Shown piece by piece: positions 20,896-48,571 of a DNA stretch of 64,000 nt. The stretch's first letter is position 1, and each line of letters begins with the position of its first letter. The position numbers were made by a program, and so were the translations under genes. A model generated the notes under the pieces. That model was not told where the DNA came from, ran no database searches, and worked only from the letters and a program-made list of their open reading frames with translations. Source of the stretch: Chlorokybus atmophyticus (lineage: Eukaryota > Plantae > Mesostigma and Chlorokybus algae); assembly GCA_009103225.1 (NCBI GenBank), contig RHPI01002262.1, positions 350,317 through 414,316 on the forward strand. The letters run 5' to 3'.

Positions 20896-21729
20896 TGTAT
20901 ACACAGTTCTTTGCATGAGTGGATGATGTGTTACACTGTTAAGTGAGGTGAATGATCAAGCAACTCAAAGTTGCTATGTCCTGACTGATGCACCAAACAC
21001 ACCACCGCCAAGCTCACAGCAATGACAAGCACAGCTCACAAGAGCATACACTGTGTCTCACGCAATACTACTTGGTACGGCAGTCCTTGGCAACTGGGAC
21101 AATGTGCTTTCAGTTTAAGTCGCTTCACAAGCTCTTAAAGTTGGAGTCTCTACTCTTAGTACTCACTCAAATTGTCACCAGCGAGTCTAGTGACATGATA
21201 TCCTATTTATATATGTCAAATCATGACTGTGTAGTGCCATGCGGGCACTAGGCCAAGGGTCACATCGAGGCCGTATGCTATTACGAAAATCCCTTAGGAC
21301 TCAATATAGCATATGAGCTGATAACAGATTCCTAACTAATCAGCTACGCGCGGTTCCTACACAGAGGCCTATAGAGTAGCCCTAGCTACATGCTACATGA
21401 AGTACACAGTAGCTAGCAGTAGGCTGGGGCGCGCGCGGTCTTCATGCTGATAGCCCGGGCTTGGGGCTGGATGTAGGCATGCTCGAGGAGGACTGTGTCG
21501 GGTCGAGGAGAGTCGAGGGTCACACTGTCTCGGGCCGCTGCAGGGAAAGATATGCTTGTTGGCCCTGTCGCTGCAACATGTTATAACATGTAGAAAAAGT
21601 AAAAGATAACCCAGCTCGTATGGCGAGGAGTGCTTGGTGGAGCTGCTCCGCTGTCGCTGTATCACACGGACGTGTGGAGGCGGTGTCCTCCTTAGTGTAC
21701 ATGCTGTGCTGTAGGACACACAGTCAACA
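20896..21729 (-). repeat. Downstream LTR (~834 bp) of the DNMT-Gypsy element
   Basis: On minus it starts TGTTGAC after the G-rich PPT and ends ...TGTGTATACA. Shows segmental similarity to 47151-48567. Confidence 0.65.
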
Positions 21730-21778
21730 AGCCACCCCCCCTGAGCTTTGGGGAGGTTCCAGCTCCGGAGCTCAGCTA

Positions 21779-23088
21779 TTAACGCAAGTCAGGAGGACCG
21801 TTGGTGCGGCAATCGTCGCACCAGTACTCCTCCATGGGTATTGCGTCCAATGGGGGCTCCAGACAGTAACAATGCAGGCCCTTGTTGCAGCCATTGCAGA
21901 GCATGATGAGTGCGTCGTCGCCAGCACTGCCGCAGCGTTCACAGCGTGTGCTGCGGGCAGGGCGAGGGTGCTGGATGCGCGAGAAGCCCGCTATGTAAGG
22001 AAGGTGACATGGCGCGCAGTTCACCATGTTATCTTCAACCTCTTGCCGTTCTGACCAAGGTCTAGCACTCCTGTGGGGTACACCTTAAGTACCTTGTAGA
22101 CAGTGCGGCCCATGGAAGTGTCAAGCGAGTCTTTGGTGGCTGCCATGCGGTAGGCAAAGTCCCCTGCTTGAAACCGCCGTTGGCACTCCTTGTGCAAGCC
22201 GCTCCGCACGCGCTCGTAGCGCAGGGTGTCGCGGTGCTGTGCGATGCGCAGGTTGTTGAAGGCCATCGGGACAGTGTGCTTGAACAGTGTGGCGCGTGTG
22301 GTAATGTTGTGGTGCATACAGTCGGGATCGTCGAGGTTCACCACACGGTCTACTTCTTGCTGTGCACGAAAGGGAAGCAATGGCGGACGCCTGAACAACA
22401 TGTAGTATGTGTTGTACTCGCGCAGAGCCGCCTGCTTTAATAATCGATATCAAAGAGCCACTCACAGAAGGTGGTCGTCCCAGGTGTTCTTATCATACTC
22501 CAGCACGTACTTGCGGAGTGCCTTTTTGATGGTCTGTACTGTCCGCTCGGCGAGACTGTCGGCTTGAGGGTGGTCACGCGAAGTGCGGCGATGATCGATG
22601 TAGCATTTGTTCAGCAGGGTGTCGAACTCCCCTCTGAACTCAGTGCCCTGGTCGGTGACGACCTCAGCGCAGCTGCCCAACCGCCTGAGGATATGGGAAA
22701 GGAAGGCTTGAGACACCCCCCTGCTGCTCTTGTCGGGTAGTGGCACCAGCTCCACCCATTTGAGGAAGTGCTTGATGATGACCAGGATGTAACGGTTGCC
22801 ACGTGCCGAGGGTGCCAAGTCTCCTCAGATGTCGAGTCCTCAGCGATAGAAAAGACCGGAGATGGGGAGAGGGTGCAAGGTGGCGTTGCGTGTGTTGAGG
22901 CTGGCGCGTACCATGTCACACTGTTGGCAGCAACTGACGAACCCCTGCACATGTTTGGACAGCCCATACCACCAATATGCGCCCTTACCAGGCTGACGGT
23001 ACGCTTGACACCGAAGTGTCCAAGCTTAGTGTGGAGGGCAGCGATCATGCCCTCGCGTGTGGCTGATGTAAGCACCTCCTTGTCCTCG
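21779..23088 (-). pseudogene. Gypsy integrase (HHCC, DDE core) with C-terminal PHD finger (21806-21946)
   Basis: HTKLGHFGVKRT; VVTDQGTEF...HPQADSLAERTVQTIK; then CERCGSAGDDALIMLCNGCNKGLHCYCLEPPLDAIPMEEYWCDDC, a C4HC3 PHD pattern. Confidence 0.88.
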
Positions 23089-23093
23089 TTATG

Positions 23094-26000
23094 TGTTGAA
23101 GGACTAGCATGCACATGTAGCTGAGGCAAGCATGGATGCACAGAGACAGAGCTACCGCCACCAGAGCATACACAAGTCACATCACATTCACCTATTACAA
23201 GTTGTCCGCTGGTTCTTATACCAGCCAGTTACATACACGTCTACATTTGCAAGCACTGCGTAACCTATACTCCGCCTTTTAACGCGCTGTAAGCTGCGTT
23301 GTCTTTTTTACAACCAGAGCTTTCCAACAAGCTCTCACACGTCTAACATGAGTAAGTATACGGGGAGATACGAAGCAGTTAGTAAGGCTCTAGTCTGGAG
23401 TCTGGAGTCCGGAGTCTGGACCGACGACGCCATCTTGCTAAGTCCGGACCTAGTGCTCGTCCTTACGACCTTCTACTCCTGTGTGGAGGGTCGATGCTGA
23501 TTGTATGTAGGAATGACTCTCAACATTATGGACGCGGCGATACACCTTGTCATCCGCCCACCGATAGTGGCGAGTGCGTTGACTGACACAATCTTTCTCT
23601 CGTGCACTTATATTGGAGGGAAGCTGGCCACTTTGCAGCAAGGAGAGTGATGGCTGGTCCAGCCATATGTCGTGCCTGGTGTCGGTGGGTGCCAGCTCGA
23701 TGTCGTCGACTTCAATGTCGACCGTGTCGACGTCCCCTTAGGGGTGTGGTCACTGTGGGGTCGGTAGGCTCAAGAGCAGGAAACTCTTCCGTTGAGGTGG
23801 CGGTGATGTTGATCTGGCTCCCTGATCGTAATGCGACAACAGCAAATATGGCCGCCACAGTGGGAGCTGCTGCTGCAGGGCCGAGCTCGTGCCGAGCTCC
23901 AGTTGCATCGTTGGTACTGCGGTGAGGGTTGCGACTGAGGCCATCGGCGTCCTGGTTGGTGAGGCCGGCGCGGTGGTCGACCTCGAAGTCATACTCCTGC
24001 AACAACAGGGCCCAGCGAGCAAGTTTCCCTGTCAGGTGTAGATAGGTCATCAACCATTTGAGTGGCTGGTGATCGGTGATCACCTGGAATTGCCGATCAA
24101 AGAGGAAAGGTCTGAAGAAGGAGATAGCCCACATTGCAGCGAGGCACTCCCCGTCGTAGCTGCTATAGTTGGCCTCAGCGCTGTTGTTGCTTCGGCTGGC
24201 GTACGACACCACCCGCTCCTTCTTATTCTCATCGTGTTGTACCAGCACAGCCCCCATCCCAAGCTTGCTCCAGTCGGTGTGGAGGATGAAGGGCTTGTTG
24301 TAGTCAGGGCGTTGCAGGATGGGAGCGATGGTGAGCCTGCCCTTTAGCTCCTCAAACGTCTGCTGTTGTGGCTCCTTCCATGCAAACACCACCTCCTTCT
24401 TCAGAAGCTCGTTGAGGGGTCATGCAATCTTTGCGAAGTCCTTTACGAACCGACGATAGTAGTTGGCAAGGCCCAAAAAGGCGCGCAGGCGCGTAAGGTC
24501 TGTTGGAGCAGGGATAGCCGCCAAGGCCTCCACCTTTGCCTGCTGTACGTACACACCGTGGGGCACAATCATGTGCCCTAGGTAGGGTACCTTGCGAGCG
24601 AAGAAGATGCACTTGTCGGGGTGCACCGTCATCCCCACCCCCTTTCATCTCTCCAGTACATCCTGAATGTGCTGTAGGTGCTTTTCGTTGCTGCGGCCGA
24701 AGATAAGGATGTCGTCAATATAGCAGCGCACGAAGTCCAGCCCCTTTAAGGCTTTGTCCATGACGCGCTGAAACTTGGCAGGAGTATTCTTCAGTCGTCC
24801 GATGGGCATGACCTTCCACTGGTACAGCTGCCGGTTGCCCCAAAAGAGGTCTTGTGCTTGTCCTCCTCCTTGATGCAGTGAAAGCGACATGTTTCTCCTT
24901 GTGTTGGTGCTCGTTGCCGCTGCTGCTGGTGCTTGCTCTAGATTGCCCCTATTGTTTCTTCTTACATTCCTTCACAATGTGCCCCTTCCTTCCACACCAG
25001 TCACTGAGGCATGTGAGGTCTTTGTGACGAGGATTGCCCGGCTTGTTGCCCTTGTTCTTCTCTTCATGGTTGCTCTTCTTCCCGTGCTTGTTGGTGTAGA
25101 AGGCCACGGCATCAGCTTGCTCGTCCTTCTTCACAACCCTCTGCTCCACAGTGAGCAGCTTCGGTAGCACATCGTCCAAAGTCAACTCTGATGATTACGT
25201 CTCCAGCAGGGTTGCGACGACCTCGTACTCTGCTGGTAGCCCTGCAACAATGGCCAGCATTACCTCCGTCTGCCCCATGTTGTGGCCGACGTTGATGAGG
25301 TCTGCCCATAGCTCTCTTGCACGTGCAACATACTTCGTAATGGGTTCTGCTGCCTCCTTCCTGAGTGCGCTGAGCTGCTTGCGTAGATGCAACTTTCTAG
25401 CATTGTTCTTGGCTCTGAACACGGCTGATAGCTTTTCCCAAGCTTGTCTACCATCTTCACATGCAGTAAACAGGGAAAGTGATGCGGTGTGCTGTTCAAC
25501 ACAAGCAAAGAGTGCGCTTCTGCTGAATGCTTTGACCACACAGTGTTTGCTCCTGGTGTTGGTGGTGGTGCTTTGGGATCAACGTACTTCCACACCTTCT
25601 TGTGGATGAGCAAGGCCTTCATCTCCACGCACCATGTGTTGTAGTTGTCGGTGTCCAGCTTTGCAATCTGCCCCTTGTCGTAGGTCGCCTTCATCTTTGT
25701 CGTGCCTGCCTTTACTTGCAGCTGACATCCAATGCTCTGCTACCAACAAGCTACCGTAGTGTATAACTACTATGCACACAAGCTAGTCTCACACTCCTCA
25801 AGCGTAGTGTGGGCCCATAACCTGTTGAAGGACTAGCATGCACATGTAGCTGAGGCAAGCATGAATGCACAGGGAGCTACCGCCACCAGAGCATACACAA
25901 GTCACATCACATTCACCTATTCCAAGTTGTCCGCTGGTTCTTATACCAGCCAGTTACATACACGTCTACATTTGCAAGCACTGCGTAACCTATACTCCGC

Positions 26001-29000
26001 CTTTTAACGCGCTGTAAGCTGCGTTGTCTTTTTTACAACCAGAGCTTTCCAACAAGCTCTCACACGTCTAACATGAGTAAGTATACGGGGAGATACGAAG
26101 CAGTTAGTAAGGCTCTAGTCTGGAGTCTGGAGTCCGGAGTCTGGACCGACGACGCCATCTTGCTAAGTCCGGACCTAGTGCTCGTCCTTACGACCTTCTA
26201 CTCCTGTGTGGAGGGTCGATGCTGATTGTATGTAGGAATGACTCTCAACATTATGGACGCGGCGATACACCTTGTCATCCGCCCACCGATAGTGGCGAGT
26301 GCGTTGACTGACACGATCTTTCTCTCGTGCACTTATATTGGAGGGAAGCTGGCCACTTTGCAGCAAGGAGAGTGATGGCTAGTCCAGCCATATGTCGTGC
26401 CTGGTGTCGGTGGGTGCCAGCTCGATGTCGTCGACTTCAACGTCGACCGTGTCGACGTCCCCTTAGGGGTGTGGTCACTGTGGGGTCGGTAGGCTCAAGA
26501 GCAGGAAACTCTTCCGTTGAGGTGGCGGTGATGTTGATCTGGCTCCCTGATCGTAATGCGACATCAGCAAATATGGCCGCCACAGTGGGAGCTGCTGCTG
26601 CAGGGCCGAGCTCGTGCCGAGCTCCAGTTGCATCGTTGGTACTGCGGTGAGGGTTGCGACTGAGGCCATCGGCGTCCTGGTTGGTGAGGCCGGCGCGGTG
26701 GTCGATCTCGAAGTCATACTCCTGCAACAACAGGGCCCAGCGAGCAAGTTTCCCTGTCAGGTGTAGATAGGTCATCAACCATTTGAGTGGCTGGTGATCG
26801 GTGATCACCTGGAATTGCCGATCAAAGAGGAAAGGTCTGAAGAAGGAGATAGCCCACATTGCAGCGAGGCACTCCCCGTCGTAGCTGCTATAGTTGGCCT
26901 CAGCGCTGTTGTTGCTTCGGCTGGCGTACGACACCACCCGCTCCTTCTTATTCTCATCGTGTTGTACCAGCACAGCCCCCATCCCAAGCTTGCTCCAGTC
27001 GGTGTGGAGGATGAAGGGCTTGTTGTAGTCAGGGCGTTGCAGGATGGGAGCGATGGTGAGCCTGCCCTTTAGCTCCTCAAACGTCTGCTGTTGTGGCTCC
27101 TTCCATGCAAACACCACCTCCTTCTTCAGAAGCTCGTTGAGGGGTCGTGCAATCTTTGCGAAGTCCTTTACGAACCGACGATAGTAGTTGGCAAGGCCCA
27201 AAAAGGCGCGCAGGCGCGTAAGGTCTGTTGGAGCAGGGATAGCCGCCAAGGCCTCCACCTTTGCCTGCTGTACGTACACACCGTGGGGCACAATCATGTG
27301 CCCTAGGTAGGGTACCTTGCGAGCGAAGAAGATGCACTTGTCGGGGTGCACCGTCATCCCCACCCCCTTTAGTCTCTCCAGTACATCCTCAATGTGCTGT
27401 AGGTGCTTTTCGTTGCTGCGGCCGAAGATAAGGATGTCGTCAATATAGCAGCGCACGAAGTCCAGCCCCTTTAAGGCTTTGTCCATGACGCGCTGAAACT
27501 TGGCAGGAGTATTCTTCAGTCGTCCGATGGGCATGACCTTCCACTGGTACAGCTGCCGGTTGCCCCAAAAGAGGTCTTGTGCTTGTCCTCCTCCTTGATG
27601 CAGTGAAAGCGACATGTTTCTCCTTGTGTTGGTGCTCGTTGCCGCTGCTGCTGGTGCTTGCTCTAGATTGCCCCTATTGTTTCTTCTTACATTCCTTCAC
27701 AATGTGCCCCTTCCTTCCACACCAGTCACTGAGGCATGTGAGGTCTTTGTGACGAGGATTGCCCGGCTTGTTGCCCTTGTTCTTCTCTTCATGGTTGCTC
27801 TTCTTCCCGTGCTTGTTGGTGTAGAAGGCCACGGCATCAGCTTGCTCGTCCTTCTTCACAACCCTCTGCTCCACAGTGAGCAGCTTCGGTAGCACATCGT
27901 CCAAAGTCAACTCTGATGATTACGTCTCCAGCAGGGTTGCGACGACCTCGTACTCTGCTGGTAGCCCTGCAACAATGGCCAGCATTACCTCCGTCTGCCC
28001 CATGTTGTGGCCGACGTTGATGAGGTCTGCCCATAGCTCTCTTGCACGTGCAACATACTTCGTAATGGGTTCTGCTGCCTCCTTCCTGAGTGCGCTGAGC
28101 TGCTTGCGTAGATGCAACTTTCTAGCATTGTTCTTGGCTCTGAACACGGCTGATAGCTTTTCCCAAGCTTGTCTACCATCTTCACATGCAGTAAACAGGG
28201 AAAGTGATGCGGTGTGCTGTTCAACACAAGCAAAGAGTGCGCTTCTGCTGAATGCTTTGACCACACAGTGTTTGCTCCTGGTGTTGGTGGTGGTGCTTTG
28301 GGATCAACGTACTTCCACACCTTCTTGTGGATGAGCAAGGCCTTCATCTCCACGCACCATGTGTTGTAGTTGTCGGTGTCCAGCTTTGCAATCTGCCCCT
28401 TGTCGTAGGTCGCCTTCATCTTTGTCGTGCCTGCCTTTACTTGCAGCTGACATCCAATGCTCTGCTACCAACAAGCTACCGTAGTGTATAACTACTATGC
28501 ACACAAGCTAGTCTCACACTCCTCAAGCGTAGTGTGGGCCCATAACCTGTTGAAGGACTAGCATGCACATGTAGCTGAGGCAAGCATGAATGCACAGGGA
28601 GCTACCGCCACCAGAGCATACACAAGTCACATCACATTCACCTATTCCAAGTTGTCCGCTGGTTCTTATACCAGCCAGTTACATACACGTCTACATTTGC
28701 AAGCACTGCGTAACCTATACTCCGCCTTTTAACGCGCTGTAAGCTGCGTTGTCTTTTTTACAACCAGAGCTTTCCAACAAGCTCTCACACGTCTAACATG
28801 AGTAAGTATACGGGGAGATACAAAGCAGTTAGTAAGGCTCTAGTCTGGAGTCTGGAGTCCGGAGTCTGGACCGACGACGCCATCTTGCTAAGTCCGGACC
28901 TAGTGCTCGTCCTTACGACCTTCTACTCCTGTGTGGAGGGTCGATGCTGATTGTATGTAGGAATGACTCTCAACATTATGGACGCGGCGATACACCTTGT

Positions 29001-30129
29001 CATCCGCCCACCGATAGTGGCGAGTGCGTTGACTGACACGATCTTTCTCTCGTGCACTTATATTGGAGGGAAGCTGGCCACTTTGCAGCAAGGAGAGTGA
29101 TGGCTAGTCCAGCCATATGTCGTGCCTGGTGTCGGTGGGTGCCAGCTCGATGTCGTCGACTTCAACGTCGACCGTGTCGACGTCCCCTTAGGGGTGTGGT
29201 CACTGTGGGGTCGGTAGGCTCAAGAGCAGGAAACTCTTCCGTTGAGGTGGCGGTGATGTTGATCTGGCTCCCTGATCGTAATGCGACATCAGCAAATATG
29301 GCCGCCACAGTGGGAGCTGCTGCTGCAGGGCCGAGCTCGTGCCGAGCTCCAGTTGCATCGTTGGTACTGCGGTGAGGGTTGCGACTGAGGCCATCGGCGT
29401 CCTGGTTGGTGAGGCCGGCGCGGTGGTCGATCTCGAAGTCATACTCCTGCAACAACAGGGCCCAGCGAGCAAGTTTCCCTGTCAGGTGTAGATAGGTCAT
29501 CAACCATTTGAGTGGCTGGTGATCGGTGATCACCTGGAATTGCCGATCAAAGAGGAAAGGTCTGAAAAAGGAGATAGCCCACACTGCAGCGAGGCACTCC
29601 CCGTCGTAGCTGCTATAGTTGGCCTCAGCGCTGTTGTTGCTTCGGCTGGCGTACGACACCACCCGCTCCTTCTTATTCTCATCGTGTTGTACCAGCACAG
29701 CCCCCATCCCAAGCTTGCTCCAGTCGGTGTGGAGGATGAAGGGCTTGTTGTAGTCAGGGCGTTGCAGGATGGGAGCGATGGTGAGCCTGCCCTTTAGCTC
29801 CTCAAACGTCTGATGTTGTGGCTCCTTCCATGCAAACACCACCTCCTTCTTCAGAAGCTCGTTGAGGGGTTGTGCAATCTTTGCGAAGTCCTTTACGAAC
29901 CGACGATAGTAGTTGGCAAGGCCCAAAAAGGCGCGCAGGCGCGTAAGGTCTGTTGGAGCAGGGATAGCCGCCAAGGCCTCCACCTTTGCCTGCTGTACGT
30001 ACACACCGTGGGGCACAATCATGTGCCCTAGGTAGGGTACCTTGCGAGCGAAGAAGATGCACTTGTCGGGGTGCACCGTCATCCCCACCCCCTTTAGTCT
30101 CTCCAGTACATCCTCAATGTGCTGTAGGT
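23094..30129 (-). repeat. Tandem array, period 2725 bp: Copia LTR + Gypsy RT/RNaseH fragment + Copia gag fragment. LTRs at 23094-23525, 25823-26250, 28548-28975
   Basis: Equivalent ORFs recur at +2725 (23450/26175/28900). LTRs are TGTTG...CAACA. TTATG lies left of 23094 and right of every LTR. PBS at 25810-25822 and 28535-28547. Confidence 0.92.
26437..27612 (-). pseudogene. Gypsy RT C-half (YIDD) and RNase H; best preserved of three copies
   Basis: VRCYIDDILIF, FLGLANYYRRFVKDFA, FILHTDWSKLGMGAVL, YDGECLAAMWAI, ITDHQPLKWL. Confidence 0.9.
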
Positions 30130-30236
30130 TTGATGGCAATCTGGTTGTACTCTTATCACATGTCTAGGATGCTGAAGACGGTACAGTCTCCTACATCATC
30201 AAAGATATCCTCTGCAGTAGGCATCGGTTCCCTGTT

Positions 30237-30480
30237 TTAAATGGTTTTGTTGTAGAGGGGGCGATAGTCGCCGCACATACGCCGGTCTGTCCAGTTGCCT
30301 GCTGAATCCTTCTTCGGAGGCATGACGGTCGCGGCCGCAAAGTCCGATGTGGACTCCTCAATCAGGCCAGCATCTAGCAGAGCCTTGCACCTCTGCTCCA
30401 CCAAGTCTTCTTCCAACTTGGAGTCAGTACTGTCGTCGAAACACCGGTTCGGTGTCCACCAACTCAATGTCCATCTGGTA
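30237..30480 (-). pseudogene. Gypsy RT N-terminal part
   Basis: LLDAGLIEESTSDFAAATVMPPKKD...DRRMCGDYRPL. Confidence 0.85.
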
Positions 30481-30789
30481 AACTGAGCAAATGCCTAGTT
30501 CCTTCATGCTGAAGCTGAACTAACTCCTCCACTTGTTGAGGAGAGCCTCAAGTTGTTCTCGCATTTGGTCTGTAGCCACTGGTCTCATGGCATGGGACCA
30601 AGAGGTAGCGTTGGCGACTACCGGGATGTTCTCCACAGTGACTGCTGCCTGCTCCTCCATAGGGGCGGTGTGTGCCGCTTTGGTCTCTTGCACGCAATCA
30701 GCCCCCCCCNGTGTTCAAGACCCTGGAAGGACACATGGCGGTCCTGGAGAGGAAAGCATATTTCCAATAACCATACCATGCTGTTCTTG

Positions 30790-36000: not shown

Positions 36001-37221
36001 GGACGGCTTCAGTGGTCATATGCTGGAGGCTGTAGGCGTGGGTGAATTGCGGCTCAATTGCAAGGTCGGTGATGGTGTAAGAGAGGTCTTGCTGAGACAA
36101 GTTCTGCACGTTCCTAGGGCTGCTGCTAGTCTATTCTCTGTGAGGGTTGCTGAGCGCGTGGGAGCTAAGATCATCATCCGGGAGGGTCGATGCTCTGTGC
36201 TCATGGATGGGGTCGTGCATATGGTTGGCATCGCGCAAGGAGGGCTCTACATCGTGGAGCAGCCTCATAGCATCAAGGCCAACGTGGTGACGGAGGAGGA
36301 AACGGCTGAACTTTGGCATAGGAGGTTCGGGCATCTTGGCTACAACAACCTCACACGCCTGGTGGCTGAAGACATGGTCAAGGGCATCCACGTCAGCAAG
36401 GAAGACTTTCAGGCGTCTTCAGGTGTACTGTGTGAACCCTGTGTCATGGCCAAGCAGCATAAGATGCCATTCCCGTCATCTTCTTCTAGCAGTCAACATC
36501 CAGGCGAGTTGGTACACATGGATGTTTGCGGGCCTATGCGCGTTGTGGCGGAGGGAGGGGTAAGGTACTTTGCAACTTTCCTCGACAACCACAGCAAGCT
36601 GTCCATCATCTACCCTTTTTCTCTGAAGTCGGAAGTTGAAGGAGCTGTGCGCAACGTCGTGGCATTGCTAGAGACACAATCAGGCAAGAAGATGAAGGCA
36701 ATGCGCAGTGATTGAGGAAGGGAGTACTTCAACGCCCAGCTCAAGGACTTTTTCGCCAGCAAAGGCATAAGGCATGAGACAACGGCGCCCTACACTCCAC
36801 AGCAAAACGGAGCGGCTGAACGCCTTAACCGGACCTTGTTGGAGCGTGTGCGGGCTATGCTCAACGATTGCAAGATGGAGGACTCTTTGTGGAAGGAGGC
36901 AGTCCTCACTGCCAACTACATCCGCAATCGGTCACCTGTGAGCTCTGATCAGAAGACACCGTGGGAGCTCTTCTATGGAGCTGCACCAGATGTGAGTGGT
37001 ATGCGTGTGTTTGGTTGCACAGCATACGCACTAGTGTCAAAGCAGCTACGGCACAAGTTGGAGCCAGTCAGCAAGAAGGGAGTCTTTGTTGGCTACAAAC
37101 CAGGCTCAAAGGCGTACAGGGTCTTGATGGACGAGAACCACAAGGTCAGCGTCAGTAGAGAGGTGGTGTTCCACGAGGGGTCACTACCAGAAGCGGGCTT
37201 CTTTCCAAAGGATGAAGATGA

Positions 37222-40200: not shown

Positions 40201-42204
40201 AGAGCAGTGGCAGCAAGCCATGGACGAGGAGATCGCGTCACTCCATGCCAACCAGACCTGGGTACTAGAGAAGCTACCTTTAGGCGAGAAACCAATCCCT
40301 GTCAAGTGGGTCTTCAAGGTGAAGAGAGACGGTCAAGGCAACATAGAGCGCTACAAGGCAAGGCTGGTGGCAAAGGGCTTCTTGCAACAAGAAGGCGTGG
40401 ACTTCAACGAGGTCTTCGCGCCTGCAAGTAAGCATGCCACATTCCGCACATTGCTTGCCATGGTTGCGGCTGAAGACTTGGAGCTTCACCACCTTGACGT
40501 GAAGACTGCCTTCCTCTACGGAGAGCTTGAGGAAGAGATCTACATCCAACAACCACCAGGATATGAAGAAGGGGAGCCAGGCACTGTTTGCAAGCTCATC
40601 AAGGCGTTGTATGGGCTGAGACAGGCACCACGCATGTGGCACATCCGCCTCACCAAGGAGTTGGAGGCACTTGGCTTTCAGGCGTCCTTAGCAGACCCTG
40701 GACTCTTCTTCCACTCTGAGAAGAAGGTGTACCTGTTGGTGTACGTGGATGACATCATCATGACCGCCAAGCACATGAAGGACTTGGAAGAGACAAAGAA
40801 GGCACTGCAGCAGGCGTTCTCAGTGCGTGATCTTGGAGAGGCCAAGTGGTTCCTTGGCATGGTGATTGAGCGCGACAGAACGGCGCGCACCATCAAGATC
40901 AGTCAAGAGCAGATGGTGAAGAAACTTGTCACCAAGTTCGGGCTCAAGGAGGCAAAGACCAAGTCTACTCCACTTGCACTCGGCACCCACCTCGTCAAGG
41001 CAAAGGATGAGGAGGTTCTTGACAAGGCCAAGTACCCCTACGGTGAACTGGTAGGCAGCATGCTCTATCTAGCAGTGTGCACACGTCCAGACATTGCACA
41101 TGCTGTTGGAGTCCTTGCTCGCTACATGTCTGCACCGAGCATGGAGCATTGGAAGGCTGCAAAGGGTGTACTTCGCTATGTTGCTGGGAGTGCAACTATT
41201 GGCATCAAGTTTGGGAACGGGAGCTCAGAGTTGGAGGGCTACTGCGATTCAGACTTTGCAGGCGACCTCGACAGCAGGAGGTCCACCACTGGCTATGTCT
41301 TCAAGTTGAACGGAGGCATTGTGAGCTGGAACAGCAGGCTGCAGCCAACTACAGCGGCATCCACTTCAGAGGCTGAGTACATGGCAGCAGCAGCAGCTAC
41401 AAAGGAGGCATTATGGCTTCGCAAGCTGATGGCAGATCTGAAGCACCCAAAGGCGTGCATTCCAATCCACTGCGACAACCAAGGCGCCATCAAGTTGCTG
41501 AAGCATCCCATCGCCTCAGCAAGGACAAAGCACATTGATGTCATGCATCACTTTGTCCGTGACAGAGTCACAAGGAAGGAGGCCGTATTCCACTATTGCA
41601 ACACCGAGGCCATGCTTGCGGACTTCATGACAAAGGCGTTGTCACCGACCAAGTTTCAGGCATGTTGTGCAGGACTTGGCATTTGCATGTGATCATGCAG
41701 GAGCAGAGACTTCAGGCTTGAGGACAAGCTGCCCGCGTGGGAGTGTTGAGGATATTTTCTATATCCGGTCAGCCTTGCCCTCCATATAGGCATAGGCGTC
41801 AACTCCGAAGGTTTGGCCGCCAGAAGGTTCCAGGCGCGGACACCATTCGAGAAGGTACTAGGCGGAGACTCCAGTCGAAGAGAAGGTTCCAGGCGCGACT
41901 TTCAGGCGCGCACAAGAACAGTCATAACTTGGTGAAAACGTCACCGTTTGGCGCGTGGCTTAGCTTGTTAGAAAGGTCTTGAAGTTAGCTACGTCATGCA
42001 GTTGAGTTCATGATGAAAGATGACGTGTAGCGTACACAGTTGCTTCTAGAGTAGACAGGTGTACAAGCAGCGGGTATAAAAACCCATGACTGAATTGTAA
42101 TCAAGTGAAAGTGTTGCTCTTGTGTATGCTCTCGCAGCTGTAGAGTTGTGTGTGTGCATGTCAGGCATCAGCCTTAGCTACATGTGTTGCTAGCTTCTTC
42201 AATA
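37222..42204 (+). mobile_element. Intact young Ty1/Copia element: two 461-bp LTRs (37222-37682, 41744-42204), TSD GATGA
   Basis: The LTRs look identical by eye. PBS GGTTATGGGCCCA at 37683-37695; purine-rich tract before 41744; GATGA at 37217-37221 and 42205-42209. Confidence 0.95.
37808..41692 (+). CDS. Copia gag-pol polyprotein, uninterrupted
   Basis: CNYCGFKGHILRDC zinc knuckle, WAIDSGC protease, WHRRFGH, DVCG...RSDRGGE...AERLNRTL integrase, LLVYVDD RT, YCDSDFAGD RNase H. Confidence 0.95.
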   Translation: METSYDKGLIAKLDIDNYSTWCVEMKALLIHKKMWKYVDPKAPPPIPGENTVWSERSAEAHSLLVLNCKPHHFPMLTACEDGRQAWEKLASVFQAKNNARKLTLRKQLSALKKEGGEPITKYVARARELWADLNNVGHNMGETEVVLAIMAGLPAEYEVVTTLLETSSSELTLDDVLPKLLTVEQRVVKKDEHADAVAFYTNKKKPYNHEEKNKGRGGNLNKHKNLTCNYCGFKGHILRDCRKRQREQGASTSTNSNGNDQRKEKNVAFTASREMSTTSWAIDSGCNQHLTPHMEVMENYRKLQTTKKVEGFSGHMLEAVGVGEVRLNCKVGDSVREVLLTEVLHVPGAAASLFSVRVAERVGGEIIIREGQCSVLMDGVVHMVGIAQGGLYIVEQPHSIKANVVKEKETAELWHRRFGHLGYNNLTRLVAEDMVKGIHISKEDFQASSGVLCEPCVMAKQHRMPFPSSSSSSQHSGELVHMDVCGPMRVVAKGGVRYFATFLDDYSKLSIIYPLSLKSEVEGAVRNVVALLETQSGKKMKAMRSDRGGEYINAQLKDFFASKGIRHETTAPYTPQQNGAAERLNRTLLERVRAMLNDCKLEDSLWKEAVLTANYIRNRSPVSSDQKTPWELFYGAAPDVSGMRVFGCTAYALVPKQLRHKLEPVSKKGVFVGYEPGSKAYRILLEESHKIIASREVVFHEGSLPEAGFFPKDEDEAQPQAVPERVEALGEADIITEDFQAPPERSSGEQQQAPVRRYPERERKRPDFYHKALAGVCQEGDSTEEPSTYQEALQAPYAEQWQQAMDEEIASLHANQTWVLEKLPLGEKPIPVKWVFKVKRDGQGNIERYKARLVAKGFLQQEGVDFNEVFAPASKHATFRTLLAMVAAEDLELHHLDVKTAFLYGELEEEIYIQQPPGYEEGEPGTVCKLIKALYGLRQAPRMWHIRLTKELEALGFQASLADPGLFFHSEKKVYLLVYVDDIIMTAKHMKDLEETKKALQQAFSVRDLGEAKWFLGMVIERDRTARTIKISQEQMVKKLVTKFGLKEAKTKSTPLALGTHLVKAKDEEVLDKAKYPYGELVGSMLYLAVCTRPDIAHAVGVLARYMSAPSMEHWKAAKGVLRYVAGSATIGIKFGNGSSELEGYCDSDFAGDLDSRRSTTGYVFKLNGGIVSWNSRLQPTTAASTSEAEYMAAAAATKEALWLRKLMADLKHPKACIPIHCDNQGAIKLLKHPIASARTKHIDVMHHFVRDRVTRKEAVFHYCNTEAMLADFMTKALSPTKFQACCAGLGICM

Positions 42205-44401
42205 GATGAAGCACAGCCACAAGCCGTTTCTGAGAGAGTGGAGGCTTCAGGCGAGGCAGACATAATCACAAAGGACTTTCAGGCGCCCCCTGAAAGGTTT
42301 TCAGGCGAGCAGCAGCAGGCGCCTGTTCATCGCTACCCTGAGAGGGAGAGAAAGCGCCCAGACTTCTACCACAAGGCACTTGCAGGCGTGTGCCAAGCGG
42401 GAGACAGCACAGAGGAGCCAAGTACATACCAAGAAGCACTGCACATTCCTGATGGGTACTTGAGCAGCTACCTTCAGGCGAGAAAACCAATCCCTGTAAA
42501 GTGGGTCTTTAAGGTGAAGAGAGATGGTCAAGGCAACATAGAGCGCTACAAGGCAAGGCTCGTGACAAAGGGCTTCTTGCAACAAAAAGGCGTGGACTTC
42601 AATGAGGTCTTCGCGCCTGCAAATAAGCATGCCACATTCCGCACATTGCTAGGCATGGTTGCGGCTGAAGACTTGGAGCTTCACCACCTTGACGTGAAGA
42701 CTGCCTTCCTCTACGAAAAGCTTGAGGAAGAGGTCTACATCCAACAACCACCGGGATACGAAGATTGGGAGCCAGGCACTGTTTGCAAGCTCATCAAGGT
42801 GTTGTATGGGCTGAGACAAGCACCACGCATGTGGCACATCCGCCTCACCAAGGAGTTGGAAGCACTTGGCTTACAGGCGTCCTCAGCACACCCTGGACTC
42901 TTCTTCCACCCTGAGAAAAAGGTGTACCTGTAGGTGTACGTGGATGACATCGTTATGACCGCCAAGCACATGAAAGACTTGGAGGAGACGAAGAAGGCAC
43001 TGCAACAGGCGTTCTCAATGCGTGATCTTGGAGAGGCCAAGTGGTTTCTTGGCATGGTGATTGAGCGCGACAGAGCGGCGCACACCATCAAGATCAGTCA
43101 GGAGCAGATGGTGAAGAGACTTGTCACCAAGTTCGGGCTCAAGGAGGCAAAGACTAAGTCTACTCCACTTGCACTCGGCACCCACCTCGTCAAGGCAAAG
43201 GATGAGGAGATTCTTGACAAGGTCAAGTACCCCTACGGTGAACTGGTAGGCAGCATGCTCTATCTAGCAGTGTGCACACGTCCAGACATTGCACATGCTG
43301 TTGGAGTCCTTGCTCGCTACATGTCTGCACCGAGCATGGAGCATTGGAAGGCTGCAAAGGGTGTACTTCGCTATGTTGCTGGAAGTGCAACTATTGGCAT
43401 CAAGTTTAGGAGCGGGAGCTCGGAGTTGGAGGGCTACTGCGACTCAGACTTTGCAGGAGACCTCGACAGCAGAAGGTCCACCACCGGCTATGTCTTCAAG
43501 TTGAATGAAGGCATCGTGAGCTGGAACAATAGGCTGCAGCCAACTACAGCGGCATCCACTTCAGAGGCTGAGTACATGGCAGCGGCAGCAGCTACAAAGG
43601 AGGCATTATGGCTTCGCAAGCTGATGGCAGATCTAGAGCACTCAATGGCATGCATCACAATCCGCTGCGACAAGCAAGGCGCCATCAAGTTGCTGAAGCA
43701 TCCCATCGCCTCAGCAAGGACAAAGCACATTGATGTTATGCATCACTTTGTCTGTGACAGAGTCACAAGGAAGGAGGTCGAGTTCCAGTATGCAACACCG
43801 AGGCCATGCTTGCGGACTTCATAACAAAGGCGTTGTCACCAAGCAAGTTTCAGGCGTGTTGTTCGGGACTTGGCACTTGCATGTGATCATGCAGGAGCAG
43901 AGACTCAAGGATTAGGACAAGCTGCCCGCGTGCGAGTGTTGAAGATATTTCTATATCCGGTCAGCCTTGCCCTTTATATAGGCATAGGCGTCAACTCCGA
44001 AGGTTTGGCCGTCATGAGGTTCCAGGCGCGGACTCCATTCAAGAAGGTTCTAGGCGGAGACTCTAGTCGAAGAGAAGGTTCCAGGCGCGATTTCCAGGCG
44101 CGTAGAAGAACACTCATAACTCGGTTATTGCACCGATTGGCGCGTGGCTTAGCTTGTTCGAAAGGTCTTAAAGTTAGCTACGCTATGCACTTAAGTTCAT
44201 GATGATAGGTAACGTTTAGCGTACACAGTTGCTTCTAGAGTAGACAGGTGTATCTGCAGCGGGTATAAAAGCCCATGCTTGAGTTGTGTCAATCAAGTAA
44301 AAGTGTTGCTCTTGTGTATGCTCTCGCGGCTGTAGAGTTGTGTGTGTGCATGTCCAGCATCAGCCTTAGCGACATGTGTTGCTAGCTTCTTCAACATTCT
44401 G

Positions 44402-46900
44402 ACCACAAAGACACGATCTCGCGTGGGAGGAGCCATGCCATGAGGATTTCATCCTCCAGTTGCCGCTAAGTCTGTTCTGGCAGCGTGTGATATTCAGGCA
44501 GTGGGAACACTCGGTCACTGCGTTCAACGCGTGTTGTGTGCTCCCCTCCGCACCCAAAAGCAATGGTAGTGGAATCCGCTCCACGCATGGTCTTCCATGC
44601 ACGCTTAGCTTGCTGACCTCGCGGGACAGCTTCAGTGACGTCGAGGGCGGGCAATGTAGTTGCGCCTGTCGCTGCAGTGGCAGCAGGCTCGACGATGGCA
44701 TAGCCGGTGGTTGCGAGAGTGCCGCTCAGTGGCGCGAGAGTGGTCTCAACGCTTGCTGACATAGGTGGTCTTGCAGTTGGAGTGGGACCGGTGCGACCTA
44801 CTGCTGCAGGGTCGGTGACAGCAGAGGCTGTTGCCAGTGTGCTCACTAGTGTTGGCGGCACGATGCCCACTGATGCACCAACTCTTGGTGCAAATGGAGT
44901 AGTTGCTGCTGACATTGATGAAGTCAACTTCGTAGCCGGTGTGGCTGCTGATGCAGCGCCATTGGTGGCTTCAGAGGAGGTGGCTGCTGACAATGTTGCG
45001 GCTTCCCCTCGAACCCGTTGGGATGGTTGAATACGTGACGGAGTAATGGTGTCTCTTGTGCGCTTTTAAGCCATCAGTGCCCACCGGGTAAAGTAGCATG
45101 CGCGGTAGTCCTGCTTCTTGTCTTCCTTTAAGCGTGCCATACGCGCCATGAGGGCAGCCATATGGTCATCAGCTGGCGGGTTGGCTGGAGCCTTGGCGGC
45201 AACAGCAGCAGCGCGCGGACGTCTTTCCAGTCCCTTGCGCTGAGGAGGGCAATTCTTACCCTTGAAGCCTTGCTCTTTCTTGCGAGCGTTGGCGTAGTTG
45301 TTGGTATTGTTATGGCCTCCGGTGTGATTGCTGTTGTAGCCACCAGAGTTGTTGCCGGTGTGGCCTCCAGTGTTGTTGCTGTTGTAGCCATCAGAGTTGT
45401 TGCCGTTGTGGCCTCCGCTGTTGTTGCTGTTGTAGCCACCAGAGTTGTTGCCGTTATAGCTGTTGACGGGTCTTGTAACAATTGGGGCCCGACCACTAGG
45501 CTATGGTAGTAAAAGACACTACCATAAGTGAGGTCTGTCACAATCTATCCCAATCCGTGACATTCCTCCCCAATTTAACCCATGAGTTCCTCATAATCCA
45601 ATGAGGCACTAGCCCACGTCGCCGTTTTCGCCGCCGTACCACAATCGGTCTGCCCGCGGCCTGATGGATTCGGCCCACAAACGGTCCTGACCGACCGAAC
45701 GGCCATCCTCACCGCGCGACCTGCCATCGCAGCGCGACCGCTCACGCGGCCTTACGTTGAACTGGCTCGGCGCGCAGGTCGTGATCCCGCGCCCAGCCTA
45801 GGGCAAGCCGCCCCAAATGTTTTTGTTTTTGCCTTGGATCTGCCTCAGTCCCCTACGGGAATTGAACCTGAGACGTCAAGCTCCGAAACCATTGTAACAA
45901 TTGGGGCCCGACCACTAGGCTATGGTAGTAAAAGACACTACCATGAGTGAGGTCTGTCACAATTTATCCCAATCTGTGACAGGTCTCAACTCAGGGAATT
46001 TGAGCCAGCAGACTGATTCCAAGTGGCCTGTCTTGTGACAGTATTTGCAGACTAGATTTGAGTGCTCTTCGGTGCACTCCTTTTGGTAGTGCCCATGCCG
46101 TCCGCAGCGATGACACAGCATAGGGGCAGGCCAAGCAGTATGCGCTGACCGTTTCCCTTTGTCGTGTGCTGGTGGAGTGTCTCGGCCATGTTCGCGGCGA
46201 GGAGGCTCGACAGTTGTGCTGGCTACAGGCCGTGAGGCGCTACGGTTGGTGTCCAGCACTGCCTTCTCATACACACACTAGCGCTTATGCATGGCTTTTG
46301 CAGTCTTGATCTCAATTTCTGCAGGGGTCGGGTTGACGATCACCAACTCAGGTTCCTCTTCCTTTGCTCTGTCAATGGCTGTCGATATGGACAACCCGGT
46401 GATTGCAGCGGGAGTGGAAGGTGGAAAGACGGCTGCTGGACTGTGCAGTGACACAGATGCTATGGTACCGGCGAGCTCGCCATAGCCATCAACTCGATGC
46501 AGTGCAGCAACAGACTTCCAAACATCATGTGCTTCATGGTCCGGATACTGAGCAGCAATGTGAAAAGAAATCTCATCTGACCAGCCTTTGTTTTTCAGTG
46601 CCTGCTGTCGCATATTGGAATGAAATTTAATAATGACTCCGTTCAGCGAGGTAGTGGCAGCACGTCCGGAAAAGCGCAGGGACGTGGTTGAGCAGGAAGA
46701 CTCCATCTCGTAGTCGTCACTATCGGATGAGAGTGGGGAAACTCGATGTCGAGGAGTGGACAGGAACGGAGTGAAGTCGGAGACAAAACGCGAGCCTCTG
46801 CTGCTACGATCGTTGCTCCCGTCGCTGGTCCGCTCGTAGGTGAGATTGGAGGGCTCCAGCTGCTGAGGTCACCCTTGTCTATTGGAGAGAACGGGGTGGG
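44402..46900 (-). pseudogene. gag region of the DNMT-Gypsy: two CCHC knuckles, Asn/Gly octapeptide repeats, Ala/Thr-rich tract
   Basis: CHRCGRHGHYQKEC and CKYCHKTGHLESVC. Removing the TRIM restores ELRP|VNSYNGNNSGGYNSNN in frame. Linking it to 33.1-34.5 kb across the Copia nest is inferred. Confidence 0.7.
45474..45981 (-). mobile_element. TRIM (miniature non-autonomous LTR element): 89-bp LTRs 45474-45562 and 45893-45981, TSD GGTCT
   Basis: LTRs TGTCAC...GTTACA. PBS-like TGGTTTCGGAGC one base after the 5' LTR; PPT GGGGAGGAA before the 3' LTR; GGTCT at 45469-45473 and 45982-45986. Confidence 0.9.
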
Positions 46901-47150
46901 CCTTCTCATACACCTAGTCAAAAAGTGGAAGTGTATGCAGGGTAGAGTGTTTGTGCTCTACTGCCTGTCTTGATGCCGCTACCACTCACCACACCAGTGC
47001 TTGTGTGCGGACTATGTTATGACAGTGATAACGAATGCACAGGGATGTGTCCCCACATACAGACTGCACTATCTGATGCAGAATGCGACGCACTCACTTG
47101 AGCAAAGAGGGTCACACTCTGAGTCAACAAGCCACTACTATAGGTAGTGC

Positions 47151-48567
47151 TGTTACACAGTTCTTTGCATGAGCAGAAAATGTGTTGCACTGTGAAGTGA
47201 GGTGGATGAGCAAGCAACGCGTGGAGACTATGCCCTGACTGATGCCAACAAACACACTGCAACCAGGCACACCAAGCTCGCAGCAATGACGAGCACGATG
47301 CACACACGAGCATGCACAGGCTCTCACACAGTGAGGGGGTTCTTGGTAATCCGGATGGCGTGTTTGCAGTTCAAGTCGTTTCACAAGCGCTTAGCTTTCT
47401 CACTCACAGTGTCACCAGCTGATCCGGTGAACACTGTGACTACTTATGCAAGTCAAATCATGACTGTTTAGAACATAAGCTAACGATCATATAAAGGCTA
47501 TTTTCACAGCGATTGTCACTCAATGTAGAACGCAACTTATAACTGAACTCACAACTGAACGGCTACGCGCGGTGCCTATGTAGGCTATGGTCGTGAGCTA
47601 CTCCGGAGTCATGACTTAGCTACTGGTTAGCGACGCACGTGCGCCAGTATACTGGTAGGCCGGGCGATGGTTTCAATGCAGGCATGCTTGATGAAGGCTG
47701 GTATGCGCGGGCAATAGGCATGACAACTAGCATGCGAGGGTAATTTGCAGGACAGCTGTCGTGCCTGCCATGGTCGAGGGTCACGCCGACCTAGGCACAC
47801 TGCAGACGAGCGCCCATGCCGGGGACATGCTGGTGCCATAGTTACAAAGTACGCTGTACGCGTATTAGTACGTGGTATGCAAAGTATGCGTGTTTTTACG
47901 TACTTTTTCCACAGCATGTCGGCGAGTACGTTTTGCATATCTTATACATACGTATTATTGATACATTATGGTAATGTATGTGATGCGTTATGTGTGCTAA
48001 CAAGTGATGGGCAACTCATTGTACATTATAATCATCACACAGTGTTTGATTCCACCAAAGATATGATGTAATCAAAGTCATTATCAATGGTAATACTTTT
48101 GCATAACATGTTACAATATAACATCATCATAACACTTTTTAAAAGATGCTTTATTACTTGCAATGCCGATAGGTGAGGTGGGTCGCACGGCGCTGCCGCG
48201 ACCTACCCGCCGCGTGACAGGTGGCGCGCGCGGCACGTCACCAAAGGACATTTGCTGCGCTATCCGCGGTCATTTTTGAAGAATGACCTATTGTAGCCCA
48301 ATAACGTACAACTTCACGTACTTTCATTGTATTATCAAAACAGCTTGATATACGCGTACTATTGCGTATTCTTTTGCTAAAAGTCGCGTACTTTGTTACT
48401 ATGGCTGGTGCTACGTGCAGCATTTGAGCAACACAAACAAATACCCCCCCCCCCCCCAGGCATAGGCATATGCTCAGGGATGAACCTATGTGAGGATCTG
48501 ATCAGTAGTAGAGTTGGTGACGCTCTCCTCCTTACTGTACCTACTGTGCTGTAGTACACAGTTGACA
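47151..48567 (-). repeat. Upstream LTR of the DNMT-Gypsy (~840 bp after removing the MITE); also the downstream LTR of the 53.6-54.8 kb copy
   Basis: Homologous segments match 20.62-21.73 kb. TG...CA ends. The PPT is restored at its right end once the Copia at 48572-53566 is removed. Confidence 0.65.
47837..48403. mobile_element. MITE, 567 bp, 18-bp TIRs, 8-bp TSD GCTGGTGC (P-element-like or hAT-like)
   Basis: TIRs CATAGTTACAAAGTACGC / GCGTACTTTGTTACTATG match at 17/18. TSD at 47829-47836 and 48404-48411. An empty-site paralog lies near 20710-20740. Confidence 0.88.
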
Positions 48568-48571
48568 AGCC

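Follow-up and report, generated by a model that had tools for sequence, protein, structure and literature searches.

A dead Chlorokybus copy of a Gypsy-DNMT3 retrotransposon with a DNMT3-like methyltransferase, a PHD finger, and split repeats that suggest integration of permuted cDNA

The locus studied here raises the question of whether a cytosine methyltransferase that lies among retrotransposon genes is an integral part of the retrotransposon and, if so, what such an enzyme might do in the life cycle of an element with split end repeats. A first-pass annotation of the window (the whole 64-kb stretch of DNA analysed, from the early-branching green alga Chlorokybus atmophyticus) had described a dead Ty3/Gypsy element with gag, protease, methyltransferase, reverse transcriptase (RT), RNase H, integrase, and PHD finger on the minus strand, and both a Pfam scan and tblastn bear out this order for what we call element 1 (about 20594-47611, minus strand). 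Its coding parts are as follows:

44397..46868, minus strand: gag region carrying two CCHC knuckles (~45990-46120) and interrupted by stops and a TRIM-like insertion; zf-CCHC match in ORF 45960-46277
32696..33025, minus strand: aspartic protease with a DSG motif (~32963-32971); match to Asp_protease_2 under the cut-off (E 3e-4); tblastn matches with P0026 and P0192
31737..32240, minus strand: N-terminal half of the DNMT3-like methyltransferase (DNMT) with motif I, motif IV (WQCQ, Cys kept), and motif VI without its Glu (GNV); a stop follows
30741..31229, minus strand: C-terminal half of the DNMT with motif VIII lacking its first Arg (AHCVR), motifs IX/X, and one stop
28981..30561, minus strand: RT and RNase H, first unit, with stops and frameshifts; middle of RT deleted at ~30130
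22033..23093, minus strand: integrase (H2C2 and core) that retains D, D, and E but has four stops and one frameshift
21788..21958, minus strand: PHD finger of C4HC3 type, the last domain of pol; PF00628 and PDB matches

The DNA_methylase match by which the methyltransferase could be checked is present (31.5 bits, cut-off 22), and PHD (PF00628; 37.8 bits, cut-off 24), zf-CCHC (22 bits, cut-off 20.8), RVT_1, and RT_RNaseH likewise score above their Pfam cut-offs, whereas the protease (21.7 bits versus 24.3), rve (29.3 versus 32.6), and H2C2 (17.5 versus 25.5) fall below them and had their positions fixed by tblastn. The Marchantia protein P0026 is colinear with element 1 from protease through RNase H in tblastn. 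The pol order PR-RT-RH-INT with a DDE integrase that retains D, D, and E is of the Ty3/Gypsy type; no tyrosine recombinase, the mark of DIRS, PAT, and Ngaro elements, was matched in 19 frames scanned with Pfam, and the frames scanned gave no match to DAM or a chromodomain (marks of EpiLTRs and chromoviruses), the place of which is occupied by the PHD finger. It is nearly certain in our view that element 1 is a dead Chlorokybus copy of a retrotransposon family that we call Gypsy-DNMT3, and its death, already noted before, is evident from the stops, a solo LTR in the DNMT, and the loss of the motif VI Glu. Once five nested inserts bounded by target site duplications (TSDs) are subtracted, the pieces outside them sum to 10,449 bp, matching an earlier reconstruction of about 10-10.5 kb. 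The nested insertions include the following:

45474..45981, no strand assigned: small LTR element resembling a TRIM, with terminal repeats of 90 bp; TSD GGTCT
34554..44396, plus strand: Copia cluster; TSD TTTTG/TTCTG (4/5 match)
31230..31731, minus strand: Copia solo LTR (502 bp) within the DNMT; TSD TGTCC; absent from other copies
23094..28980, no strand assigned: Copia LTR and tandem array; LTR 23094-23525 (TSD TTATG) at the start of the integrase

The array at 23094-28980 is built of 2725-bp tandem units composed of Gypsy RT-RH, a Copia LTR, and Copia gag, and an ORF within it (26437-27696) has a YIDD motif and an open RNase H. ARAGORN found no tRNA genes in the 64-kb window.

At a locus so full of nested inserts, the methyltransferase could itself be an independent insert or a captured host-gene fragment confined to element 1. 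The alignment with P0026 argues against this, since its match to the N-terminal half of the DNMT runs up to query residue 542 (window 31734) and resumes in the C-terminal half at the same residue (window 31229), and the intervening solo LTR is skipped by 3 contigs in run X1 and 1 in run X2. Many other copies in these two runs cover protease and DNMT; the domain sits in the same position and frame, ahead of RT, in Marchantia, Closterium, Tetraselmis, and metagenome proteins; and the segment shows no intron and lies within the Pol ORF, as in KnitGypsy-Dnmt3. The DNMT is also upstream of RT at 23 of 27 loci bearing the family repeats, a count from a scan that used a DNMT motif as one of two patterns and thus favours DNMT-bearing loci. 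Relatives, repeat-bearing loci, and the colinear alignment together refute the idea of a lone insert, which we consider extremely improbable, and support the previous view that the Dnmt3-like domain is an integral part of a Ty3/Gypsy Pol, located after protease and before RT. Because none of the contigs listed spans 30720-34550, the evidence that protease, DNMT, and RT are linked in other host copies comes from these relatives.

A profile of 15 relatives scored best with DNMT3A (83 bits), ahead of DRM (45), HhaI (37), and DNMT2 (21), and an AF2 model of the natural relative P0155 aligned better to DNMT3A (Z 21.0, rmsd 2.8, 240 aligned) than to HhaI (Z 16.3). Judged by these profile and fold rankings, the methyltransferase belongs to the Dnmt3 family. 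A word search with the degenerate N-terminal half found P0001 as its sole match, and an ESM Atlas search returned generic DNA_methylase clusters. The Gypsy-DNMT3 family comprises 771 clusters at 50% identity, including Marchantia, Closterium, Tetraselmis, and Scenedesmus, and has a second domain order in which the DNMT follows RNase H and precedes integrase. Among the best 120 RT relatives, 21 carry the DNMT ahead of RT and 85 are without one in the called protein, though many of the latter start just before RT so that loss and truncation are indistinguishable. In an RT tree of 47 of 141 rows, the window RT falls into a 98/97 clade with P0002, P0019, and Marchantia P0026, apart from chromodomain-bearing RTs; the Klebsormidium RTs P0033 and P0068, with no DNMT in the called ORF, are among the relatives near this clade but outside it. 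A DNMT tree (FastTree, 82 rows, midpoint root, without cellular outgroup, and hence silent on the order of events) places the after-RNase-H type in a group of its own (0.97) that does not contain P0222. Our scan found no relatives in viral contigs. That the family occurs in records of Chlorokybus, liverworts, desmids, and chlorophytes suggests an ancient clade of wide distribution.

Element 1 keeps the catalytic Cys of its DNMT and has lost the Glu and one Arg, and with stops and a solo LTR inside, the frame is not open. The first-pass annotation had counted a change from PC to QC in motif IV among the lesions, which misreads the family: the motif reads EC in 84 of 180 DNMT-bearing relatives and PC in 50 (8 SC, 14 other, 24 unmatched), so mostly ECQ or PCQ, a Glu codon precedes the Cys in other copies of runs X1 and X2 as well, and the Cys itself is retained in element 1. 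EC in place of the usual PC may reduce methyltransferase activity. Across 34 relatives, conservation of the catalytic Cys and Glu reaches 90% or more, and Cys, Gln, Glu, and RxR persist among relatives that are only 20-40% identical. Catalysis by a live enzyme on the element's own DNA is a prediction to which we give an even chance. A self-methylation hypothesis had already been proposed by de Mendoza et al. 2018 (PMC5890265), the precedent that the first-pass annotation had rightly cited.

It is less likely, though worth weighing, that the DNMT has been retained as a module that binds DNA or has weak activity, or that it acts on genomic copies (by self-restraint or silencing of rivals) and not on new cDNA. 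The frequent replacement of PC in relatives would agree with this, as would a locus (L015) that keeps the family repeats without gag-PR-DNMT. The element has a CpG o/e of 0.68-0.78 compared with 0.57-0.58 in neighbouring DNMT-less Copias and hence shows no extra CpG loss, and in the accessible text on the Klebsormidium domain, no methylation was seen in yeast, a result that its authors call inconclusive (PMC5890265). On the other side stand the conservation of catalytic residues at such low overall identity, the CG methylation in yeast by related SymbioDIRS-Dnmt3 domains (PMC5890265, accessible text), and the position of the DNMT inside Pol, by which it would be packaged with cDNA.

The PHD finger matches PDB entries of the UHRF1/2, ATXR5, BAZ2A/B, KDM5, AIRE, and PHF21A types, the ligand of which we take to be unmodified H3. 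It resembles readers of unmodified H3, and such binding is predicted. Sitting on the integrase, it may bind unmodified H3 tails in the manner of the ADD domain of DNMT3 and could thereby steer both insertion and methylation to H3K4-unmethylated chromatin.

The element's ends differ from the ordinary LTR ends that had been implied before: two full direct LTRs around the coding region, typical of Ty3/Gypsy elements, are absent, and split direct repeats take their place, together with those of a second family copy:

47122..47611, minus strand: repeat A1, with which element 1 begins on its 5' side; 74% identity with A2 in 564 aligned columns; left edge exact, right edge approximate
47402..47416, minus strand: predicted self-primer in A1, equal to the predicted first ~15 nt of the transcript; 13/15 positions pair with the primer-binding site (PBS)
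47110..47124, minus strand: predicted PBS directly after A1; not tRNA-type; paired with the self-primer in MFE and centroid folds
21735..21741, minus strand: polypurine tract (PPT; G run) directly before B1, seen in sequence and at the same place in relatives
21392..21734, minus strand: repeat B1; left edge approximate
20879..21391, minus strand: repeat A2; TATA box at 21204-21213, followed after ~30 nt by the copy of the self-primer (21165-21179)
20594..20878, minus strand: repeat B2; nearer the second copy's B (82-86%) than B1 (69%)
47612..48571, minus strand: B repeat of the second copy; holds a hAT-like MITE at 47837-48403 (TIRs, 8-bp TSD GCTGGTGC)
48572..53566, minus strand: Copia element inserted where the B repeat of the second copy begins; TSD AAGCC; 98.6% identity between its LTRs
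53572..54863, minus strand: integrase and PHD of the second copy; 73% identical to element 1; 5' part cut off by another Copia

The previously proposed boundaries do not hold, since 47612-48571 is the B repeat of the second copy, and an LTR pair 20896-21720 / 47151-48567 was rejected because its right half belongs to that copy. An ordinary element inserted into a solo LTR was also rejected, as it would yield B-[BA..BA]-A. The repeat order A-coding-B-A-B is shared by element 1 and 6 related loci, B precedes the coding region at none of 27 loci, and the order A-B-A-coding-B was not seen among related loci. TG...CA occurs only at the outer ends and at an internal junction, where all 9 loci matching a CA-nn-TG pattern that allowed spacers of 0-4 nt have exactly 2 nt; in the window copy, this junction is not clearly readable. 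Of 7 relatives that could be scored, 5 have 4-bp flanks that agree at 3-4 positions (chance 5-6% each), with a 2/4 match at L010 and no TSD at L038. The evidence for a 4-bp TSD comes from these relatives, as the window copy sits within another copy's repeats and its own TSD is unreadable.

A PBS after the 5' repeat and a PPT before the 3' repeat are present as in other Ty3/Gypsy elements, but the PBS is predicted to be self-priming; a tRNA-type site was rejected since no TGG follows A1. Primer and PBS pair better than all 40 shuffles in 6 of 13 loci (at another place in one of these, L018) and fail to do so in the other 7, and the pair covaries, with three different sequences in three subfamilies. 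The window copy's pairing is weak when taken alone (2/40 shuffles equal it; fold z -1.7). In 6 of 7 loci, the self-primer is preceded at ~30 nt by a TATA box; TATA box and self-primer lie 165-205 nt inside A.

This anatomy suggests a route of insertion via permuted DNA that would be unusual for this class of retrotransposons. Transcription would start in A, ~30 nt past the TATA box; the RNA 5' end would pair with the PBS behind A1 and prime the minus strand, as in Tf1; and the plus strand would begin at the PPT preceding B. With this start, self-primer, and PPT, ordinary LTR-type reverse transcription would yield BA-coding-BA, the ends of which might then be joined in a covalent circle or by a third strand jump. 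Integrase cutting the internal CA-nn-TG junction between B and A would generate A-coding-B-A-B with a 4-bp TSD. We rate self-priming with BA-coding-BA cDNA and subsequent integration via a circle or internal junction as slightly favoured. If the circle has two junctions, A-B-A-coding-B would be expected as well, but this order is unseen, and the model does not account for the bias in repeat order. The missing order would be accounted for if the split repeats arose as in PAT or Ngaro elements, with the whole A-coding-B-A-B transcribed, linear cDNA rebuilt by template switches, and integrase acting on the TG...CA ends without any circle or internal cut. The repeat order is indeed that of DIRS-type elements and the outer ends are TG...CA with 4-bp TSDs; however, a start 165-205 nt inside A leaves the beginning of A1 outside the RNA so that it must come from A2, the PPT sits before B1, and the internal spacer is fixed at 2 nt, and we find this route rather unlikely. 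The reading that we prefer as a whole, and consider probable, is a dead Gypsy-DNMT3 copy, with live copies in which the released enzyme would likely methylate the element's own cDNA or fresh insertion and which likely integrate circularly permuted cDNA.

Capture of a DNMT by Gypsy elements is already known, in the literature searched from Klebsormidium only. The accessible text on KnitGypsy-Dnmt3 of Klebsormidium nitens (PMC5890265) describes, as here, a Gypsy Pol with an intronless Dnmt3-related domain in a streptophyte alga and, in the legend of Fig. 4c, Gypsy domains combined with repeats in DIRS-like order, albeit in a host other than Chlorokybus; that text contains no "PHD", though Fig. 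4c may draw one, and gives no domain order, EC motif, self-priming, or att-junction model. SymbioDIRS-Dnmt3 of Symbiodinium shares Dnmt3 in Pol, A-coding-B-A-B, two domain orders, and no CpG depletion, but has a tyrosine recombinase instead of a DDE integrase and, according to the same text, CG methylation shown in yeast (PMC5890265). EpiLTRs of Cymbomonas and Euglena are, in the part of the preprint available, LTR elements that combine a C5 methyltransferase with a histone-reader domain (bioRxiv 10.64898/2026.05.21.726589), so that the writer-plus-reader concept is already in print. Their DNMT, however, is a DNMT4 sister accompanied by DAM and a chromodomain, and in Cymbomonas it forms the 3' part of pol, while that of element 1 is DNMT3-like and internal, with a PHD finger and without DAM. 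Tf1/Sushi and Tcn1 likewise have a PBS complementary to the predicted RNA 5' end and no tRNA site but are chromoviruses with ordinary LTRs, unlike the Gypsy-DNMT3 family with its PHD finger and split repeats (PMC4600332, PMC6317226, accessible parts). The mobile elements CR1 and Rehavkus of Chlamydomonas also bear a PHD, here as an accessory domain of algal retrotransposons, beside which the accessible text reports no DNMT (PMC8557442).

Our literature search, with most subscription journals, Repbase, and theses outside its scope, found nothing beyond these papers on a PHD-DNMT3-Gypsy pairing, a Chlorokybus record, or a split-repeat or circle model for Gypsy elements. Relative to this literature, we did not find in print the family size, second domain order, PHD likeness, TATA/self-primer/PBS arrangement, PPT, CA-nn-TG junction, or 4-bp TSDs. 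More tentatively, and at somewhat less than even chances, these features may define a green-lineage-wide Ty3/Gypsy clade (Chlorokybus, Klebsormidium, Closterium, liverworts, and chlorophytes) with Tf1-like self-priming, mid-LTR integrase sites, a permuted two-LTR circle used via DDE integrase, the DNMT3-plus-unmodified-H3-reader logic of animal DNMT3 in one polyprotein, and an active EC-type motif. LTR circles are usually regarded as dead ends, and the repeat anatomy would offer a concrete route by which a DDE-integrase retrotransposon could use a circle junction as substrate. The family also supplies many natural enzymes with open frames as an alternative to a single inconclusive yeast test. 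Since LTR finders need two full LTRs, elements with split repeats escape them, and when plant genomes are annotated, Gypsy-DNMT3 elements raise the apparent number of DNMT3s, MARPO_0091s0058 being one example.

On the minus strand, in order of falling coordinate, Pfam searches of 19 frames recovered zf-CCHC, aspartic protease, DNA_methylase, RVT_1, RT_RNaseH, H2C2, rve and PHD, and natural relatives align by tblastn, so that the Ty3/Gypsy element with a DNA methyltransferase (DNMT) and a PHD finger proposed by the first-pass annotation is real. DNA_methylase scored 31.5 bits (cut-off 22) and PHD 37.8 (cut-off 24), with the aspartic protease, H2C2 and rve below their cut-offs; all pieces of this copy (element 1, about 20594-47611) were located by tblastn alignment of nine natural relatives. 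From protease to RNase H it is colinear with Marchantia protein P0026, whose alignment is interrupted at residue 542, precisely where a Copia solo LTR sits that is missing from contigs of other host copies (3 in sequencing run X1, 1 in X2). The pieces outside the inserts total 10,449 bp.

Insertions in element 1 and the adjoining second copy (window positions)
23094-28980: Copia LTR at the integrase start plus 2725-bp tandem units; TSD present
31230-31731: Copia solo LTR inside the DNMT, 502 bp; TSD TGTCC
34554-44396: nested Copia cluster; TSD present
45474-45981: nested TRIM; TSD present
47837-48403: hAT-like MITE in the repeat of the second copy (same family, integrase-PHD at 53572-54863); TSD present

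Element 1 is a dead copy: stops and frameshifts break it, and the motif VI Glu and one motif VIII Arg are gone. Three tandem units of 2725 bp at 23094-30129 (98.7-99.5% identical, each with Gypsy RT-RNase H, a Copia LTR and gag) are due either to recent duplication or to misassembly. About 1.4 kb separating gag from protease (33100-34548) is multi-copy in X1 and X2 and gave no Pfam match in the three frames scanned.

The Chlorokybus element is a further member of the already known Gypsy-DNMT3 retrotransposons. Searching with the DNMT portion preceding the solo LTR (31737-32240) returned 771 clusters at 50% identity, 316 of them with E <= 1e-10, and the RT search gave 541 matches. Among the best 120 of these RT matches, the DNMT precedes RT in 21 (6 with PHD) and follows RNase H in 14 (5 with PHD); in the other 85 the called protein lacks a DNMT (PHD present in 40), and many of these begin just before RT. 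The 150 listed representatives carry the DNMT before RT (7), after protease only (8), before integrase (60), alone (74) or not at all (1). Among named proteins, the window's order is found in Marchantia P0026 and P0028, Closterium P0029 and P0057 and Tetraselmis P0081, and the second order, with the DNMT after RNase H, in Scenedesmus P0202 and the partial Haematococcus protein P0067. An IQ-TREE phylogeny of RT-RNase H (47 rows) placed the window's RT in a 98/97 clade with P0002, P0004, P0005, P0019, Calypogeia P0012 and Marchantia P0026 and united 13 of 14 second-order rows in a 100/98 clade, with weak deeper forks; a single DNMT capture followed by domain relocation appears likely. The same DNMT type occurs in P0162, P0260, P0235 and P0237, accompanied by RT and Dam, by an endonuclease, RT and a PCIF1-like domain, or by Copia-type RT, and seems to move between retroelement classes. 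P0118, a related Gypsy Pol, lacks a DNMT and carries its PHD between RNase H and integrase.

In PDB, a profile built from the window's two DNMT halves and relative P0001 ranked DNMT3A, 3C and 3B above HhaI and DRM2, and a 15-relative profile scored DNMT3A at 83 bits, DRM at 45, HhaI at 37 and DNMT2 at 21. The AF2 model of natural relative P0155 (236 residues at pLDDT >= 90) matched DNMT3A at Z 21.0 (rmsd 2.8, 240 residues); a bacterial CpG methylase reached Z 18.4 and HhaI 16.3. Pattern-based counts among 180 DNMT-bearing relatives, many of them partial, gave EC (84), PC (50), SC (8), other (14) or unmatched (24) at motif IV, EN at motif VI in 110 (59 unmatched) and RxR at motif VIII in 105 (57 unmatched). 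Since EC is the commonest form and most relatives have EC or PC, and since Glu precedes the motif IV Cys in other host copies (8 X1 contigs and 2 X2 contigs), the proposed PC-to-QC change should not be counted as the lesion that was assumed.

With the DNMT built into Pol and its catalytic residues retained, methylation of the element's own cDNA is predicted as its most likely role. Against this, CpG observed/expected ratios were 0.68-0.78 for the element, 0.57-0.58 for the Copias and 0.86 for host genes, with no extra CpG loss in the element; the Klebsormidium DNMT domain gave no methylation in yeast (PMC5890265). The PHD had 51 PDB matches, led by the KMT2D/MLL3, UHRF1/2, ATXR5, WSTF, BAZ2A/B and KDM5 fingers, with AIRE and PHF21A among the rest. 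Most of these we take to be readers of unmodified H3 tails, a function that would parallel the ADD domain of DNMT3. PHDs are described as common among algal mobile elements in the available part of PMC8557442.

The terminal repeats are split into direct repeats A and B and permuted, their minus-strand order being second-copy integrase-PHD, B, A, element 1 coding region, B, A, B. A metagenome scan with two patterns, one a DNMT motif, kept 77 loci from the best 80 of at least 568 confirmed (L008/L009 and L019/L020 are probable duplicates). Family repeats occurred in 27 of the 77, with the DNMT before RT in 23; three others have no room for a DNMT, and L015 lacks gag-PR-DNMT. Six loci show A-coding-B-A-B, seven more a 3' B-A-B and three A-coding-B, and B precedes the coding region in none of the repeat-bearing metagenome loci. 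TG...CA forms the outer ends, and 4-bp flanks match at 4/4 in L020 and L018 (a T run), 3/4 in L012, L013 and L041, 2/4 in L010 and 0/4 in L038; L015 and L047 are truncated. A G run lies just before B1, the first B after the coding region, and the joint to the following A2 reads CA-nn-TG, with a 2-base spacer in all 9 matching loci. As the window's last B is nearer to the second copy's B (82-86%) than to element 1's own (69%), it is likely that the A-coding-B unit of element 1 joined the B-A-B array of the second copy in the fashion of a recombining circle. The A-coding-B forms (L018, L041 and L047; TSD-like 4-bp flanks in two) have two candidate origins, deletion of B by B or a one-LTR circle that integrated.

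Bases following A1, the 5' repeat, are complementary to a site 165-205 nt inside A (14/14 in L038 and L013), and in 6 of 13 loci this pairing is better than in any of 40 shuffles; the L038 fold has z = -3.9, and a TATA box lies about 30 nt before the self-primer site in 6 of 7 loci. This arrangement recurs in the window with a different sequence (13/15 pairs, a score reached by 2 of 40 shuffles), with primer and PBS paired in both MFE and centroid folds (z -1.7) and a TATA in A2, and L032 carries a third primer sequence. Such predicted self-priming matches that described for Tf1 and Tj1 in the available accounts. Given the TATA, primer, PBS and PPT-like G run, the replicative LTR would be B-A. 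Standard reverse transcription would yield BA-coding-BA, with ends lacking TG...CA, and joining of these ends followed by a cut at the internal CA-nn-TG junction would reproduce the integrated form exactly, with a TSD of the DDE type; we infer this as the integration route. Such a circle-type route would not by itself account for the use of only one of two junctions, and a linear route via template switches is a possible alternative. The interest of the family lies mainly in its breadth and in the testable route by end joining and internal-junction cutting.

DNMT capture and the repeat order are already in print for KnitGypsy-Dnmt3 of Klebsormidium nitens (de Mendoza et al. 2018, PMC5890265), whose repeats the Fig. 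4c legend calls DIRS-like, as is a DNMT with a histone reader for the EpiLTRs (bioRxiv 10.64898/2026.05.21.726589), both as judged from the available parts of these sources. The Chlorokybus copy, PHD pairing, EC motif, second order and self-priming/internal-junction model were not found in the literature searched; Fig. 4c or the main supplement of PMC5890265 may show some of them.

Among other features of the window, a near-intact Copia at 37222-42205 is a very recent insertion: its 1318-aa polyprotein is open and its LTRs are 100% identical across 462 bp; its PBS, GGTTATGGGCCC, is presumably of the half-tRNA type. Two other minus-strand Gypsy elements (57922-64000, with 600-bp repeats 97% identical, and 18175-19409) are about 30% identical to the Gypsy-DNMT3 family. 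A host exon at 674-982 (minus strand) matches the record jgi/Chlat1/3218/Chrsp22S03499, taken to be from Chlorokybus, an early-branching streptophyte alga, at 100% identity across 103 aa; the remaining 119 of 120 listed matches reach 66-77%. Host genes encode ciliary BBS4 (210-2974) and an amino-acid permease (4275-8100), with TG-rich introns.
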